Made by a program: the position numbers and the translations under genes. Shown piece by piece: positions 30,401 through 35,600 of a stretch of 64,000 nt of DNA. The notes below the pieces were generated by a model. That model had not been told where the DNA came from. It did no database searches and saw nothing but the letters and a program-made list of their open reading frames with translations. Source of the DNA: an uncultured delta proteobacterium (GTDB taxonomy: Bacteria; Myxococcota_A; UBA9160; SMWR01); the NCBI GenBank assembly GCA_963832165.1, contig CAWHTE010000011.1, forward strand, positions 64,001 to 128,000, given 5' to 3'. Numbering within the stretch: the first letter of the stretch is position 1; each line of letters begins with the position of its first letter.

Positions 30401-31623
30401 GCACGTTCGGCATCACCGTCGGGGGCGGCCCCGCGCCCGGGATCAACGGCGTGATCGGCGCCGCGGCCACGCGCGCGCTGCGCCGCGGCCACCGCGTGAT
30501 CGGGATCTACGACGGCTTCTCGCGGATCATGGAGGGCGACACGACCCGCGTGGTCGACCTCGATGTCGACGCGGTGGCTCGGATCCACCTCGAGGGCGGA
30601 TCGATCCTGCACACCTCGCGGGCCAACCCGACCAAGAAGCCCGAGCACCTCGCCAACGTCGTGAAGTCGCTGGGCGCGCTCGGCATCGATCACCTGATCA
30701 CGATCGGCGGCGACGACACCGCGTCGTCGTCGAGCCGCGTCGCCGAGCAGGCGGGTGGGAAGATCCGCGTCGCGCACGTGCCCAAGACGATCGACAACGA
30801 CCTGCCGCTGCCCGAAGGCGTGCCCACGTTCGGGTTCGAGACCGCGCGCGAGCACGGCACCACGGTGGTCGAGCGCCTGATCCTCGACATGCAGACCACG
30901 AACCGGTGGTTCTTCATCGTGATGATGGGCCGCTCGGCGGGGCACCTCGCGCTCGGCGCGGGCAAGTCCGCCGGAGCGCCGATCACGCTGATCCCCGAGG
31001 AGTTCCCGAATCCGCTCGCGATCGAGGACGTGGTTCGCACGCTCGAGGGCGCGATCGTGAAGCGGCTCGCCAACGGGCGCCCCGACGGCGTCGCGGTGAT
31101 CGCGGAGGGTGTGGCCTCGGCGATGGATCCGAACGATCCGCTGCTCGCGGATGCGCCGCGCGACGAGCACGGCCACGTTCGGCTCGCCGAGGTGCCGCTC
31201 GCTCGGGTGCTGCGCACGGCCGTCGCCGACGCGCTCGCGGCGCGCGGCGTCAAGGTGACGATCGGCGAGAAGGACGTCGGCTACGAGCTGCGCTGCGGCT
31301 ATCCGACCGCGTTCGATCGCGACTACACGCGCGACCTCGGCGTGGGCGCGGTCGATGCGCTGCTCGCGGGCCAATCGGGCGTACTGATCACGCGCCAGGC
31401 GGGCCGGATCGTGCCCGTGCCGTTCGGCGAGATCATCGATCCGAAGACGAAGAAGTCGCGCGTGCGCGGCGTCGACACGAGCTCGGACAGCTACCGCAAC
31501 GCGCTCGCGCTCCAGGATCGCGTCACCGCGGAAGACCTGGCCGACGCGAAGACGCTCGCCGCGATCGCGGCCGCAGCAGGCCTCACGCCCGAAGAGGCGC
31601 GCAAGCGGTACCAGCCGCTGTAG
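30397..31623 (+). CDS. 6-phosphofructokinase, probably PPi-dependent
   Basis: 'GGGPAPGIN', 'IGGDDT', 'PKTIDND', 'MGRSAG', 'GYELRC'. Confidence 0.92.
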   Translation: MSTFGITVGGGPAPGINGVIGAAATRALRRGHRVIGIYDGFSRIMEGDTTRVVDLDVDAVARIHLEGGSILHTSRANPTKKPEHLANVVKSLGALGIDHLITIGGDDTASSSSRVAEQAGGKIRVAHVPKTIDNDLPLPEGVPTFGFETAREHGTTVVERLILDMQTTNRWFFIVMMGRSAGHLALGAGKSAGAPITLIPEEFPNPLAIEDVVRTLEGAIVKRLANGRPDGVAVIAEGVASAMDPNDPLLADAPRDEHGHVRLAEVPLARVLRTAVADALAARGVKVTIGEKDVGYELRCGYPTAFDRDYTRDLGVGAVDALLAGQSGVLITRQAGRIVPVPFGEIIDPKTKKSRVRGVDTSSDSYRNALALQDRVTAEDLADAKTLAAIAAAAGLTPEEARKRYQPL

Positions 31624-31640
31624 GGCGGGTGAAACCCGCC
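31620..31640 (+). repeat. Short GTAG-type REP hairpin overlapping the pfk stop codon
   Basis: GTAGGGCGGGTGAAACCCGCC. Confidence 0.55.
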
Positions 31641-31904
31641 ATCTTGCTCAGGCTGTTCCAAAGCGACGGACTCGGCGGCCCCCTTGAACCCTGCCGCGGC
31701 CGCGATCGCGCCCCCTGAGCGATCCTGGCGCGTCCCCGCAGGTGCGCACCGATCCGATGGCGTCCGTGCGCGAGCGCCGGCGGGGCACCCGAGGGGCTCG
31801 TCCTGACATTCCAGCTAACTCAGCGATTTCATTGAGGCCGGCTCGACCGGCGACGACACGGAGTCGGCCCGCTCGCGCGCGGCGGATCCGCCCGCGGGTC
31901 GACC

Positions 31905-31930
31905 GCGAACTGGATTCAAATCCAGTTCGC
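31905..31930. promoter_or_regulatory. Perfect 12-bp palindrome containing an SOS-box-like CTG-N10-CAG
   Basis: GCGAACTGGATT-CA-AATCCAGTTCGC. Confidence 0.5.
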
Positions 31931-32109
31931 CAACCGCAACACTTCACCTTCCCCGCGCGCCGCTCGGATGGACTCGTCCGCGGGTCGGCGCGAACGCGGG
32001 TTCAACAGCTCTTCCGAAACTCCGAACATTATCCTGCGAAACGTCGCAGCCTAACCGAATCACTCACCGCGCAACCCCGCGATTCGACGCGACTCCCTAC
32101 CCACACCGG

Positions 32110-32174
32110 TAAAATAGGCTGCAAGCTCTCGCAGTATTCGCTGCATGGGGGCGCAAGCTAATAAGTAGTTAGCC
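32110..32174 (+). other. attI-like integron site
   Basis: GCTAATAAGTAGTTAGCC: GTTRRRY core at 32168 with inverted partner GCTAA, directly before the first cassette; no attC arms. Confidence 0.6.
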
Positions 32175-32186
32175 GGCGGGAAGGCG

Positions 32187-32567
32187 ATGCAGACCTTGCG
32201 GTCAATTCTCGTGCTCCTCCTCATCGCGATCATCCCGGCGTCGGCGCTCGCGGAGGTGTCCGACAAGGCACCCACGATTCCGCGCCATTGGGTTATCGCT
32301 ATCCCCATCGCTGCAGTTCTCTTCGCGGCGGGAAGCCACCGATGGTGGCTTGGCGCGCTACTCGCCGTCGTTCCCATCTTCATCCTGCTCGGCTCGATCG
32401 ACATGACGTTCGATCAGTACGTTGGTCCGGCTCTATGGCGCGAGCAGGGCTGGCCGTACTTCGCAAGCCTCTGGAGCTCGGACCTTCTCATGCTCGGTGC
32501 CCTGCTGCTCGGCATTCGTCGCGGCTGGGCACGCCGACAACACTCCCATGAGCTACCCGGCGGCTAA
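32187..32567 (+). CDS. Gene cassette 1: small membrane protein
   Basis: 126 aa, signal peptide plus TMs; bounded by GTTAGCC and GGCTAAC, with the stop codon inside R''. Confidence 0.8.
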   Translation: MQTLRSILVLLLIAIIPASALAEVSDKAPTIPRHWVIAIPIAAVLFAAGSHRWWLGALLAVVPIFILLGSIDMTFDQYVGPALWREQGWPYFASLWSSDLLMLGALLLGIRRGWARRQHSHELPGG

Positions 32568-32690
32568 CAAGCGCTTGAAGCTGCCGAGCCCTGCGAAGCG
32601 TATCGAGGCTCGATACTGTCTGGCGTCGGCGCTCGGGGCGGTTCCACTGGCGGTCAGCGGGCTCGCAGCTTAAGCGCCGATCCGTTAGAT
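32562..32690 (+). other. attC recombination site
   Basis: R'' GGCTAAC; arms GCTTgAAGCTGCcGAGCCC / GGGCTCGCAGCTTAAGC with two unpaired bases; R' GTTAGAT. Confidence 0.9.
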
Positions 32691-32703
32691 CCTCTCTGCG
32701 CTG

Positions 32704-33690
32704 TCAAGCGCTCATCGCGCAGAATTTCTCGCCGTCGAAGTTGCTATTGCTCGCCCACATTCCGTGGATGCTATGCAGGAGCTTTCGCTCTACGGCGACC
32801 AGGGCTTGGATGGGCTTGAGTCCTCCTGCGAGGCGCTTCTGATAGAAGGTCCTCACACTGGGCTCCTCACGGGCTGCGACCATCGCCGGCATGTAGAGCG
32901 CCGCTCGCAGGTGACTGTTTCCCTTCTTGCTGATCCGGGCGGGCTTGTGCAGCGAGGTTCCCGAGTCGTGCGCACGCGGGTCGAGTCCCGCGTGAGCGAC
33001 CCACTGACGAGGGGTCATGTCGGCGGGCAGCACGGCGAGCTCGGCGAGAATGCGCAGTGCGCTGGTGGTCGCGATGCCGCGGACCGAAATGAGCCGCTCG
33101 AAGCGTTGCGCGAGCTCGGGGTGCGCTTGCACGAGCTCGAGCGCCTGCTGCTGCAAACGCTCCAGGCTCTGCGCGAGATGCTCGAGGTGCGCTTCGATGT
33201 CCCAGGCGATCGCTTCGGTGAGCTCCGCACAGCGGCCCGCCGCATGAAGTCGATTGCGCTCCTGGGTTCGCGTGACGGTGAGGGCGCCGATCCGACGGAC
33301 GATCGCCCGTAGATCGAGGATCTCGGGCGCGGGCGGCTGCCACGATGCGAAAGGCATTCGCTGCGCAAACTCCAGCAGCACCCCTGCGTCCACGCGATCC
33401 GTCTTCGAGCGCTGCAGCAGCGCGCGTCCGAAGTCCCGCGCCGCCGAGGGGTTCACCACCATCACGTCGATCGCTCGCGCTCGATGCAGCGCTAATGCCA
33501 AGTCGAGGTGGTAGATGCCCGTCGCCTCCAGGCACACGCGCGCGGCCTTTCCGCGGCGGGTCAGCAACCGAATCAGTCGCTCGTGGCCCTCGATATCGTT
33601 GGCCAGTGTGACCCGCTCGGCACGCCCCTCGATCGCCACCGTGATCTCGTCCGCGCTGACATCGACTCCCACATAGCAGGCTCCACGCAT
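32704..33690 (-). CDS. IS110 DEDD recombinase/transposase, apparently intact
   Basis: 'VGVDVS', 'CLEATG', 'KTDRVDA', 'AGLDP...SGTS', 'ISKKGN..LR.ALY'. Confidence 0.96.
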   Translation of the reverse strand: MRGACYVGVDVSADEITVAIEGRAERVTLANDIEGHERLIRLLTRRGKAARVCLEATGIYHLDLALALHRARAIDVMVVNPSAARDFGRALLQRSKTDRVDAGVLLEFAQRMPFASWQPPAPEILDLRAIVRRIGALTVTRTQERNRLHAAGRCAELTEAIAWDIEAHLEHLAQSLERLQQQALELVQAHPELAQRFERLISVRGIATTSALRILAELAVLPADMTPRQWVAHAGLDPRAHDSGTSLHKPARISKKGNSHLRAALYMPAMVAAREEPSVRTFYQKRLAGGLKPIQALVAVERKLLHSIHGMWASNSNFDGEKFCAMSA

Positions 33691-33699
33691 GCGTCCCCC

Positions 33700-33895
33700 C
33701 GTGTTACGCTGCTTCCGGGTTCCCCGACCCTGTACCGTCGCCTACCGACCTTGTGGATGCAGGCTCTCGGGCCTCGGATCCTCCACGGCATGGGCGAAGA
33801 GGGCGGGGGACCCATCTAACGGACAAGCTCGTGGCTTCAGGCAGCAACGGTCTCCCCGGAAGCGTGATCATGCTAGGTCGGATCGTCGGCACGGC
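33700..33895 (-). ncRNA. Predicted IS110 bridge RNA (ends approximate)
   Basis: Guide-like segments matching target and donor in LTG-RTG-LDG-RDG order upstream of the recombinase. Confidence 0.75.
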
Positions 33896-33917
33896 CACGG
33901 GGTAGATACAAGGCGTC

Positions 33918-34296
33918 ATGAGCAGGATCGCCGCAACCGCCGTTCTGTGCGCCTGCTGCCGTCATCGCCATTCAGGCGTGTACACAGGTCGCTGGGACGC
34001 GCGCGTATTCGCTCGATTCCCTGCAAGGCGGTTGGTGGTCAGACTGCAATGATCCCGCCGTCGAGTTTCTAATTCGTGGCACCGAGTACTCAGGCGACTT
34101 CGACGGTGCATACGAGCTCACACTTACCGGTGATGTCCTCGTGTTCACGGATGGGCTCGTCGATGGACACAGCACCAATGTCACCCACAAGCCGCTGTCA
34201 TTTCAGATTCTGACTCTGACGGACGAGCGGCTTGTATTGCGCCCATCGCCTGGCAACCCTCATGTCGGCGACTGGGATCTACTATCCTGCAAGTGA
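33918..34296 (+). CDS. Gene cassette 2: putative lipoprotein, +1 frameshift near 33950
   Basis: MSRIAATAVLCA continues as AAVIAIQACTQ...LQGGWWSDC...DWDLLSCK* in next frame; lower GC. Confidence 0.6.
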
Positions 34297-34349
34297 ACTC
34301 CGCGAGATGAATGGCAGCGCGGACATTAGGCCGACGCGCGAGGGGCGGC

Positions 34350-35085
34350 ATGTTGCCCGAGAGCAGGAACATCGCCGACGCCTACTGGGCTGCAGACCTT
34401 GGTTGTGAAGCGGAGGCGCTCAGGCCGACGGAGCCGCGTGTGCAGCCCGTCAGCGGCAGGCACGCGGACTACAACGGCGCATTCATCCTGGTGCTCGATG
34501 GAGCGCCCGTCGTGTCCGTTCCGCCGTCGCTCCTTGCCGTCGTCTCTCCAAGGTCCGCCGAGTTCCGTGCGGATGTGGTTGCGGACCCGAAGCGGCTTCA
34601 CCCGCTCCTTCCTGGGTCGGACCCGACGCGCATGATTGGACCGGCCCACCTCTATTACGCCGATCGAGACCTGCTTCCGATCCACGTCGGCCCTGCCAGC
34701 GCGCCCGCTGAAACCCCTCGACGAAGCGGCCTTTCGGAGGCTCGAGGCCGCGTGCACACCTGGCGACTGGGAGCCGAAGGGATTCGACTTGGAGCCCGAC
34801 CGCACCCACGGCGCGTTCGACCCTGTTGGAGAGCTGCTTGCTGTCGCGAACTTCCGGGTCTGGGGCGAGCGCATCGCGCATCTCAGCGTCGTCGCCCGTC
34901 CGGATGCGCGCGGCAAGGGTCACGGCACGAGCGCGGTCGCTTCCGTCGCGCTCCATGCGCTGCAGTCCGGGTACCTCCTGCAGTACCGGGTTCTGGCTTC
35001 GAACGCGCCATCCATACGGATCGCGCAGAAGCTTGGCTTCCACTACTACGGTTGGTCCATGGCGGCGAGATTTGGCTCGGCTTAA
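34350..35085 (+). CDS. Cassette-derived GNAT acetyltransferase, +1 frameshift near 34668
   Basis: 'VVARPDARGKGHG', 'NAPSIRIAQKLGF'; stop lies in R''-like GCTTAAC. Confidence 0.75.
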
Positions 35086-35093
35086 CAAGGGCG

Positions 35094-35600
35094 CTGACGC
35101 TCGTCCGCAGACTCGCTCGGCATGAGTGGCGCGAGTATCGCGAGCTTCGCCTGCGCGCTCTCGCCGACTCACCTTCTGCCTTCGCGACGACGCTCGCTGA
35201 CGCTCGGGCTCGCGGGGACGAAGACTGGTCCCGTCAAGTGGCCTTGGGAGCGGAGTCTCCATCCGAGATCGCGCTCGTCGCGGAGATGCACTCGCAGCTG
35301 GTCGGTCTCGTGTGGAGCCGGATCGACGATTCGGATCCCCACCGTGCTCATCTCTATCAGATGTGGGTCGACCCGGACTTCCGCGGCCTTGGAGCGGGAC
35401 GGGAGCTGCTGGCCTCCGCAATCCGCTGGGTCGCGAGCGTCAACGCCCGTGTCATCGTCCTGTCGGTCACCTGTGGCGACACTCCGGCGACGCGCTTGTA
35501 CGGGAACGCGGGCTTCGAGCCCGTCGGGCATCCCGAGCCCCTTAGGCCTGGATCAGACATACTGGCACAGCCCATGCAGCTCGAGTTGCGTGGTGCCTAA
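35094..35600 (+). CDS. Cassette-derived GNAT acetyltransferase lacking a canonical start codon
   Basis: 'YRELRLRALADSPSAF', 'MWVDPDFRGLGAG', 'ATRLY..AGF'; stop lies in GCCTAAC. Confidence 0.75.
   Translation: MTLVRRLARHEWREYRELRLRALADSPSAFATTLADARARGDEDWSRQVALGAESPSEIALVAEMHSQLVGLVWSRIDDSDPHRAHLYQMWVDPDFRGLGAGRELLASAIRWVASVNARVIVLSVTCGDTPATRLYGNAGFEPVGHPEPLRPGSDILAQPMQLELRGA

Follow-up and report, generated by a model that had tools for sequence, protein, structure and literature searches.

An IS621-like insertion sequence with a predicted bridge RNA matched to the R' end of integron attC sites

The DNA analysed here is a 64,000-nt stretch (the window) from an uncultured delta proteobacterium (assembly GCA_963832165.1, contig CAWHTE010000011.1, positions 64,001 to 128,000), and all positions below are counted within it unless another contig is named. 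On its minus strand, at 32687-33912, the window carries an IS110-group insertion sequence (IS). These positions include both of its CT cores; 1,222 bp lie between the cores, and the length is 1,224 bp when one core is counted. Our reading, to which we give a probability of about 0.88, is that this is an intact, IS621-like element guided by a bridge RNA whose target loop is set to the R' end of the attC sites of the host lineage. Direct support comes from sequence matches, covariation in the RNA fold, covariation between guides and flanks, repeated insertion at the same base of attC in integrons, and two identical copies. We infer transcription, RNA–protein binding, a circular form and the chemistry of the element.

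The boundaries of the element follow from its junctions. On the minus strand, the left junction at 33920-33901 reads ...CATGACGC-CT-TGTATCTACC... and the right junction at 32697-32677 reads ...CAGAGAGGAT-CT-AACGGATCGG.... In short, the element enters as ATGACGC-CT-TGTAT (CT at 33912-33911) and leaves as AGAGGAT-CT-AACGGA (CT at 32688-32687). The CT core flanks the element on both sides and recurs inside the guides, and uninterrupted sites carry a single CT. An initial annotation, made by a model from the sequence of the window, had placed CT cores on both sides and a 220-nt non-coding end upstream of the recombinase gene, and the junctions bear this out. Another contig of this assembly carries a second copy (G000:C1:234286-235520), with 100% identity over 1,235 bases. 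The flanks of this copy read GCGCCGC-CT, the element, and CT-AACGGATCG, with AACGGATCGCGG as the longer right flank; both copies of this genome thus share GC-CT on the left and CT-AACGGATCG on the right. That the two identical copies occupy distinct, though similar, sites speaks for recent activity of this intact insertion sequence of the IS621/IS110 type.

The recombinase agrees with this assignment. The 328-aa open reading frame (ORF) matches the Pfam families DEDD_Tnp_IS110 (E 2.9e-18) and Transposase_20 (E 9.8e-19), and in an alignment with the IS621 protein D10, E55, D98, D101 and S243 fall on the corresponding residues. Its closest named relatives in the plasmid collection are entered as 'IS110-like element IS621 family transposase', with 35.5% identity over 98% of the query. 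Relatives for the comparisons below were gathered by a class-wide protein search of 225 genomes, 22 of which, counting the element's own, hold matches at E <= 1e-70; a contig scan added three contigs from metagenome-assembled genomes titled Deltaproteobacteria. The wider family is large: among the metagenomic candidates scored, about 3,000 proteins match at E <= 1e-40, all under generic names.

The left non-coding end contains four segments that match or complement the sequences at which the element would recombine (Table 1): a left target guide (LTG), a right target guide (RTG), a left donor guide (LDG) as well as a right donor guide (RDG). The initial annotation had already read TTGCTGCCT at 33847-33839, TCCGTTAG at 33823-33816, GAGGATC at 33783-33777 and ACAAG at 33754-33750. 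Every one of these strings and coordinates is right on the minus strand, as are its counts of 6/9 matches to the left target and 8/8 to the right target. The LTG is compared with the left target plus core, and one of its three mismatches would be a G-U wobble. The sequence CTAACGGA occurs only twice in the window, once at the right junction and once as its complement inside the left end; shuffled windows contain it 0.37 times on average, and 5 of 100 shuffles reach two occurrences.

If these segments are guides, they should change together with the sequences that they read. Flanks and guides were tabulated for 30 distinct insertions, with guides taken from alignment columns, and the guides were then permuted among elements 10,000 times; kinship among the elements inflates all of the resulting figures. 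LTG and flank agree at 183 of 260 positions, against a permuted mean of 160.7 +/- 4.9, and LDG and right end at 150 of 160, against 139.3 +/- 1.9; no permutation reached either value. For the RTG the agreement is 185 of 208, against a permuted mean of 174.3 +/- 5.0, a value equalled or exceeded by 273 of the 10,000 permutations.

Individual elements (we label loci L and genomes G) carry the same signal. The LDG variants GGAT, GTAT and GCGT track the right end in every element. The LTG of L044 matches GTGTCCGCCT at 10/10 positions, and in L046 GTCT is common to the flank and the element's guide. L041 has the RTG AGCGGAG and sits at the non-attC site CT-CCGCT, where its LTG, placed by eye, fits the left flank at 7/10 positions with a one-base shift. 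Five elements have an LTG that ends in CAT or TAT, and in all five the left junction is AT, not CT; L040, for instance, has GCCGTAT in guide and flank alike. In L033, L034, L037, L040 and L043 the core is in fact mismatched: the LTG specifies AT but the RTG, LDG and RDG specify CT. In all five, the A of the target remains at the left junction, which is AT, and the C of the donor at the right one, which is CT. The host attC R' of the five AT-core elements reads GTTAT/GC (arrays in L059-L061). These cases amount to a natural mismatched-core experiment, which may bear on the position of strand exchange.

The left end also behaves as a structured RNA. We aligned 22 distinct left ends, the window's own and those of 21 relatives with 51-90% protein identity, over the stretch that can be aligned, from ~45 nt past TGTAT to ~15 nt before the start codon. 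The RNAalifold consensus is an outer helix around two stem-loops, each with a large internal loop and a small closing hairpin. After two predicted guide-to-guide pairs had been taken out, the consensus has 33 pairs, 96.6% of 725 cells are paired, and 11 pairs show compensatory changes on both sides. None of 500 column shuffles did as well in pairing, in covariation score or in its count of compensatory pairs; because the aligned left ends are kin, this is not a probability, and the fairer control is to slide the 3' partners by one column, upon which pairing falls to 50-56%. All four guide segments fall inside the two internal loops, LTG and RTG in loop 1 and LDG and RDG in loop 2, as the reading of the initial annotation requires and as the fold check on these 22 left ends now supports.

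A covariance model of this RNA, R1, finds both copies of the element in its own genome and nothing else there. Outside the class it matches left ends on plasmids of Acidisarcina (Acidobacteriota; 60.1 bits) and Salinibacter (Rhodothermota; 31.3 bits), whose recombinases have 46% and 45% protein identity, respectively. The Acidisarcina element, read fully, sits at a different target, TCCCACC-CT-TCCCAC, with matching guides. The Salinibacter ruber element (L065; plasmid NZ_CP030363.1; 45% protein identity) has AT cores on both sides, the target GGGAC-AT-AACGGGCC and the RTG GCCGTTAT; its flank may be another attC-like site.

The target in the window is an attC. The bottom strand of this site folds at -33 kcal/mol (z -2.56), and its hairpin ends in GATCC-GTTAG at 32684-32688, exactly where the element begins. 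The stop codon (TAA) of the ORF at 32187-32567 (+) lies inside R'' GGCTAAC, and the cassette-start GTTAGCC at 32168-32174 is the exact complement of the cassette's own R''. The proposal that the empty target is the attC R' box GTTAGGC is upheld by this R'' with its stop codon, the imperfect hairpin and the GTTAG at 32684-32688. The cassette strand is the plus strand of the window, and the element is antisense to the cassettes. An attC of this kind is nearly symmetric: both arms read GCCGC-CT-AAC and diverge only after AAC, with GGA at R' and AAG at R''. The 8-nt RTG spans exactly the bases that separate the R' arm, AACGGA, from the look-alike R'' arm, AACAAG. By reaching three bases past AAC, the RTG would thus set both the side and the orientation of insertion. 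After insertion, the R' reads GTTAGAT (32684-32690, +), and in L044 it reads GTTAGAC. Both still fit GTTRRRY because the right end of the element finishes in AT-CT (GT-CT in L044), and the right ends of all relatives finish in one of these two ways. The interrupted site, with the next cassette, may consequently still be a substrate of IntI.

Insertions of relatives show that this choice of target is recurrent. Right flanks of at least 80 nt are available for 26 distinct insertions (L035 is a placement by eye, and the partner arm of L034 is poor). Of these, 17 lie at the start of a complete hairpin of 58-180 nt ending ...TTGTTAGGC, that is ...TTGTT(A/G)GGC, and all 17 strike the same base of attC. 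Four others (L018, L022, L023 and L029) have an attC-like start with no GTT partner called; by eye, L029 has a partner arm with a degenerate R''. The remaining five are not attC-like and comprise four copies in G192 and the retargeted L041. All four G192 copies fetched are without a recognisable attC hairpin, keep parts of a ~14-nt motif, and match well in only one half of the target. The expectation that other copies would also lie at attC thus holds for the 17 complete sites, and it does not extend to the G192 copies, with their partial ~14-nt motif, or to L041. Specificity is for sequence, not for attC as such.

Several of these insertions lie in or beside recognisable integrons. Of 10 carrier genomes tested with the integron integrase model TIGR02249 (cut-off 265 bits), 8 have a match of 410-452 bits. 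The element lies 1.1 kb from intI in G005, 1.8 kb in G031 (where attC half-site hits form an array), 2.8 kb in G192 and 3.7 kb in G166, whose ten sites, all in one orientation, begin 1.3 kb from intI. In G167 the element is in the same array as intI, with 38 attC half-site hits over 28 kb in one orientation. The attC-like sites of relatives form one-orientation arrays with a spacing of about 0.4-0.9 kb that start beside intI. In G166 and G167, where the array begins at the 5' end of intI, the element strikes R', the far end of each attC. The direction of intI varies among carriers: it has the classical, divergent layout in three genomes of other families (G166:C8, G167:C3, G192:C1), and in the two genomes of the window's own family (G031:C14, G005:C272) it points in the same direction as the cassettes, with the array past its 3' end. 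One of the two tested carriers that lack an integrase above the cut-off is G074 (L041, L048), which holds the retargeted L041 (CT-CCGCT).

The same arrays allow the LTG to be compared with sites that the element has not interrupted. In G166 and G167, GCCGC-AT-AACGGA stands at 24 of 26 uninterrupted R' ends. The LTG of the G167 resident, (A/T)TGCCGCAT, agrees at 7-9 of 9 positions with 16 of the 18 uninterrupted sites of that array. The LTG thus appears to follow the attC dialect of the host, the first core base included. These comparisons divide a further claim of the initial annotation, that a long perfect guide on the conserved attC side is paired with a tolerant guide on a variable cassette side. 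The long guide stands, with the RTG at 8/8. The tolerant guide does not, because GCCGC-CT is conserved beside R' and the left side is not really variable. Given the better matches of the relatives, the 6/9 of the window is a below-average match rather than designed tolerance.

RNA-guided recombination by the IS110 group was described for the IS621 bridge RNA by Durrant et al. 2024 (PMC11208160), and IS621 is the natural point of comparison. In its annotated (PGAP) copy, TTATCAGGC-CT precedes an element that runs from TGTATTATCC to ACAGTAT and is followed by CT-ACGTG, and its left end contains, in order, ATCGGGCCT, a hairpin, TGCGTAG, ACAGTATC, a second hairpin and GCAAGG. IS621 and the window element share the order, sense and spacing of the guides (LTG, hairpin, RTG, LDG, hairpin, RDG), a DEDD and Ser recombinase, a left end that is long beside a short right one, and the CT core. 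Their donor ends are alike, GTAT-CT-TGTAT in IS621 and GGAT-CT-TGTAT in the window, and each has a -35-like box in the right end 15 nt before the core end, TTGCAG and TTGACA, respectively. The guide order and the CTTGTAT donor end that had been attributed to an IS621 architecture are indeed those of the IS621 copy. However, the proteins are only 35.5% identical, and R1 has no significant match in IS621. The targets also differ, attC R' for the window element and repetitive extragenic palindromic (REP) sequences for IS621. The RTG has 8 nt in the window element and four bases in IS621, and PMC11208160 gives longer ones for some orthologues. We further list as unlike IS621 the outer helix around both loops and the 5' 45 nt without sequence conservation. 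The half-target matches in G192 recall the half-match off-target insertions of IS621 reported in a 2026 preprint.

Table 1. Coordinates of the element, its predicted guides and its target within the window
Feature	Position	Strand	Basis
Whole insertion sequence	32687..33912	-	Junctions read; identical second copy with the same ends; uninterrupted attC-like sites of the same genome with a single CT
Recombinase gene, 328 aa; DEDD RuvC-like domain and Tnp domain	32704..33690	-	Pfam PF01548, PF02371; catalytic residues align with IS621
Left core CT, after left target ATGACGC	33911..33912	-	Same position in 29 insertions of relatives
Right core CT, before right target AACGGA	32687..32688	-	On the plus strand, AG of attC R' GTTAG
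Left non-coding end, 220 nt, predicted source of bridge RNA	33691..33910	-	Junctions; alignment and fold of left ends
Right non-coding end, 15 nt	32689..32703	-	Junction reading, lengths
Predicted bridge-RNA core: outer helix and two internal loops	33711..33864	-	Covariance model R1, 177.7 bits, E 5.8e-37; consensus fold
Left target guide (LTG) TTGCTGCCT	33839..33847	-	Loop 1, 5' side; same sense as left target plus core
Hairpin closing target-binding loop, AAGC...GCTT	33825..33837	-	4 pairs, 100% paired; one A-U to G-C switch in 6 sequences
Right target guide (RTG) TCCGTTAG	33816..33823	-	Loop 1; 8/8 complement of CT-AACGGA
Left donor guide (LDG) GGAGGATCC	33776..33784	-	Loop 2; matches right end AGAGGAT-C
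Hairpin closing donor-binding loop, AGGC...GCCT	33761..33774	-	Helix 6, 98.9% paired
Right donor guide (RDG) CCACAAG	33750..33756	-	Loop 2; ACAAG complements CT-TGT of left end
TTGACA, -35 half of putative circle-only promoter	32702..32707	-	17 nt before TATCTA (33908-33903); spacing computed
attC struck by the element, from R'' GGCTAAC (32562-32568) through an imperfect hairpin to R' GTTAG (32684-32688)	32562..32688	+	127 nt; bottom-strand fold
Cassette body upstream of attC: GTTAGCC (32168-32174) and ORF 32187-32567	32168..32567	+	126 aa, no Pfam family

It is useful to weigh this reading against other explanations of the same site. One is that the element belongs to the described group of attC-targeting IS1111 elements, namely ISKpn4, ISPst6, ISPa25 (seekRNA shown; Siddiquee et al. 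2024, PMC11187229) and ISPa21, so that its guide would be a seekRNA and nothing would be new. Those elements belong to the same ISfinder family and strike one attC end in a site- and orientation-specific manner (PMC11187229), using a recombinase of the same superfamily and an RNA guide, as the window element presumably does. However, PMC11208160 and PMC11187229 separate the two types by the side of the non-coding end and the RNA: upstream for IS110; downstream, with long sub-terminal inverted repeats of 7-17 bp, for IS1111. The attC-targeting IS1111 elements accordingly carry their RNA downstream of the gene, and their target matches run in reverse order. The window element does not have this layout. 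Its left end is 220 nt and its right end 15 nt, and its guides lie upstream of the gene in the order LTG, RTG, LDG, RDG. No sub-terminal inverted repeat joins the ends: when the first 60 nt are compared with the last 60 nt, inverted matches reach at most 5 nt, and none of the 25 longest inverted repeats of the element links both ends. We therefore class it as IS110 type by its non-coding side, its predicted RNA side and its repeats, with IS621 as the best named protein match, and consider membership in the IS1111 group highly improbable. The earlier description of an IS621-like element aimed at attC accords with this upstream layout, with IS621 as best named relative and with a true attC R' target. 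Group IIC-attC introns, another class of RNA-guided retroelement, also invade attC in one orientation (PMC3001079), but unlike the window element they rely on ribozyme and reverse transcriptase machinery.

Two further explanations concern the target. The protein might recognise attC as a folded DNA hairpin, in which case the guide-like matches would be by-products of shared ancestry or of ends set wrongly. Indeed, attC sites are structured and most insertions lie in complete hairpins. Yet the guides shift with the flanks: the RTG of L041 has switched fully to a non-attC site, the LTGs of AT-core elements read AT, and L044 matches at 10/10. The four fetched G192 copies keep parts of the 14-nt motif where no attC hairpin is recognisable. 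Since uninterrupted attC sites carry the target and none of the element's sequence, the ends are not mis-set, and we regard hairpin recognition as unlikely. Alternatively, the palindromes could be REP-like repeats that merely resemble attC, in the manner of the REP targets of IS621 and ISPa11, which would suit a solitary site in a genome where no integron integrase was found. Against this stand the R'' RYYYAAC and R' GTTRRRY on either side of an imperfect hairpin, the stop codon that R'' contains and, in relatives, one-orientation arrays that start beside an intI scoring 410-452 bits against a cut-off of 265. An identity as REP-like repeats is very doubtful.

Several observations weigh against guidance by a bridge RNA set to attC. 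With respect to the target, nine paired attC-like sites form small clusters in the host genome (89% complete), and no integron integrase was found in it, the best score being 72.6 bits against the cut-off of 265. The struck attC is the sole attC-like site found on the window's contig, and the second copy lies in a truncated attC. The attC half-site profiles were built from flanks of the same elements; the arrays that they found adjoin intI and are independent of the elements. With respect to the guides, the RTG signal in the permutation test is weak because there are only six RTG variants and most elements have one common target, and kinship overstates the independence of all the permutation figures. 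With respect to the RNA, Rfam has no family for the left end: scans of 32000-34500 and 31500-32300 returned chance miRNA-like matches or none. Folded as a single sequence, the left end is no more stable than its shuffles (z 0.09), a comparison that is uninformative in G+C-rich sequence. R1 finds nothing in the IS621 left end with default filters and, unfiltered, a match at E 0.7 in the donor-loop register only, so that RNA homology to IS621 rests on layout and protein similarity. Finally, the candidate -10 box TATCTA fits 3/6 consensus positions, and neither a circle junction nor an empty-site joint was found in the contigs of four runs, whose small shares (<=0.19) make this no evidence either way.

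A bridge-RNA-guided element of this kind would move as follows. On excision as a circle, the right and left ends would abut across one CT and bring TTGACA to 17 nt before TATCTA. The geometry is equal in the IS621 circle (TTGCAG-17-TATTAT), TTGAC is kept in the right ends of relatives, and a scan of the integrated element turned up neither a sigma-70-like promoter nor a terminator. The promoter formed at the circle junction would transcribe the left end (about 190 nt) and the recombinase gene. The RNA would fold into two internal loops. Its donor loop (GGAGGATC / ACAAG) would pair with both strands of the junction AGAGGAT-CT-TGTAT, and its target loop (GCTGCCT / TCCGTTAG) with both strands of GC(C/T)GC-CT-AACGGA, which on the cassette strand is TCC-GTTAG/GC-GGC, the core of attC R'. 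The DEDD/Ser recombinase would then exchange strands at CT, leaving the element antisense to the cassettes with a CT on each side.

RNA libraries from soil, rhizosphere and sediment contain near-identical left ends, which is not proof of transcription given possible DNA carry-over. Contigs from three metatranscriptome runs, which belong to three studies, span 33686-33862 and show 0 to 8 differences, and a DNA contig covers 33489-33863. Since the RNA-run contigs stop where the DNA contig stops, no transcript end can be read from them.

The surroundings of the element offer some further observations. The segment 32168-32688 (+) has the form of a complete single cassette, and its 126-aa ORF contains hydrophobic stretches. 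G+C is 0.645-0.66 over 32-36 kb and about 0.70-0.72 beside it. Past the element, the next open frame has its ATG at 33918 (+) and 44 codons; a longer open frame, from ~33922 in the +1 frame, reaches 34296 and matches no Pfam family. The frames at 33918-34296 could be explained by a different start codon, by a frameshift or by decay of a cassette gene. Further on, a 429-aa open frame at 34311-35600 (+) has a GNAT acetyltransferase domain only at residues 306-404; its long N-terminal part is without a family match and may be spurious or a reading of its own. On the other side, a tRNA T-arm-like hairpin, GAACTGGATTCAAATCCAGTTC, lies at 31908-31932 (+) in a 540-nt gene-free stretch past a phosphofructokinase gene, and neither ARAGORN nor Rfam found a tRNA or tmRNA near it. 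At the second copy, the first ~115 nt from G000:C1:235513 onward (L002 from 2729) resemble the site at G000:C2:367277, and the partner arm and R'' are missing.

As for what is new, both the mechanism and attC targeting by IS1111 elements are already published, and an IS621-like lineage aimed at attC is previously unreported as far as we could find. The full-text literature searched gave no account of an IS110-type element whose upstream bridge RNA is aimed at attC. In the searched portion of the supplements of PMC11208160 integrons go unmentioned, and a fuller list may exist; those supplements do contain related RNA scaffolds with REP-like targets and, without comment, a few GCCTAAC-type targets. 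The finding means that the IS621-like bridge recombinases used in genome engineering, which make up the second branch of the IS110 family, have in nature also been aimed at integron sites, in parallel with the attC-targeting IS1111 elements. It also supplies about 30 natural pairs of guide and target, among them a long, 8-nt right guide, partial-match insertions, one retargeted element and a core mismatch, and such pairs can inform rules of specificity and off-target insertion.

For integron biology, the element represents an abundant additional parasite able to block or remodel the cassette arrays of environmental bacteria. More tentatively, an IS621-like lineage may live on Myxococcota-type chromosomal integrons and track their attC dialects, with the element and the next cassette perhaps forming a substrate of IntI and hence exportable cargo. 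If this is true, the element could itself be shuffled and exported as cassette cargo.

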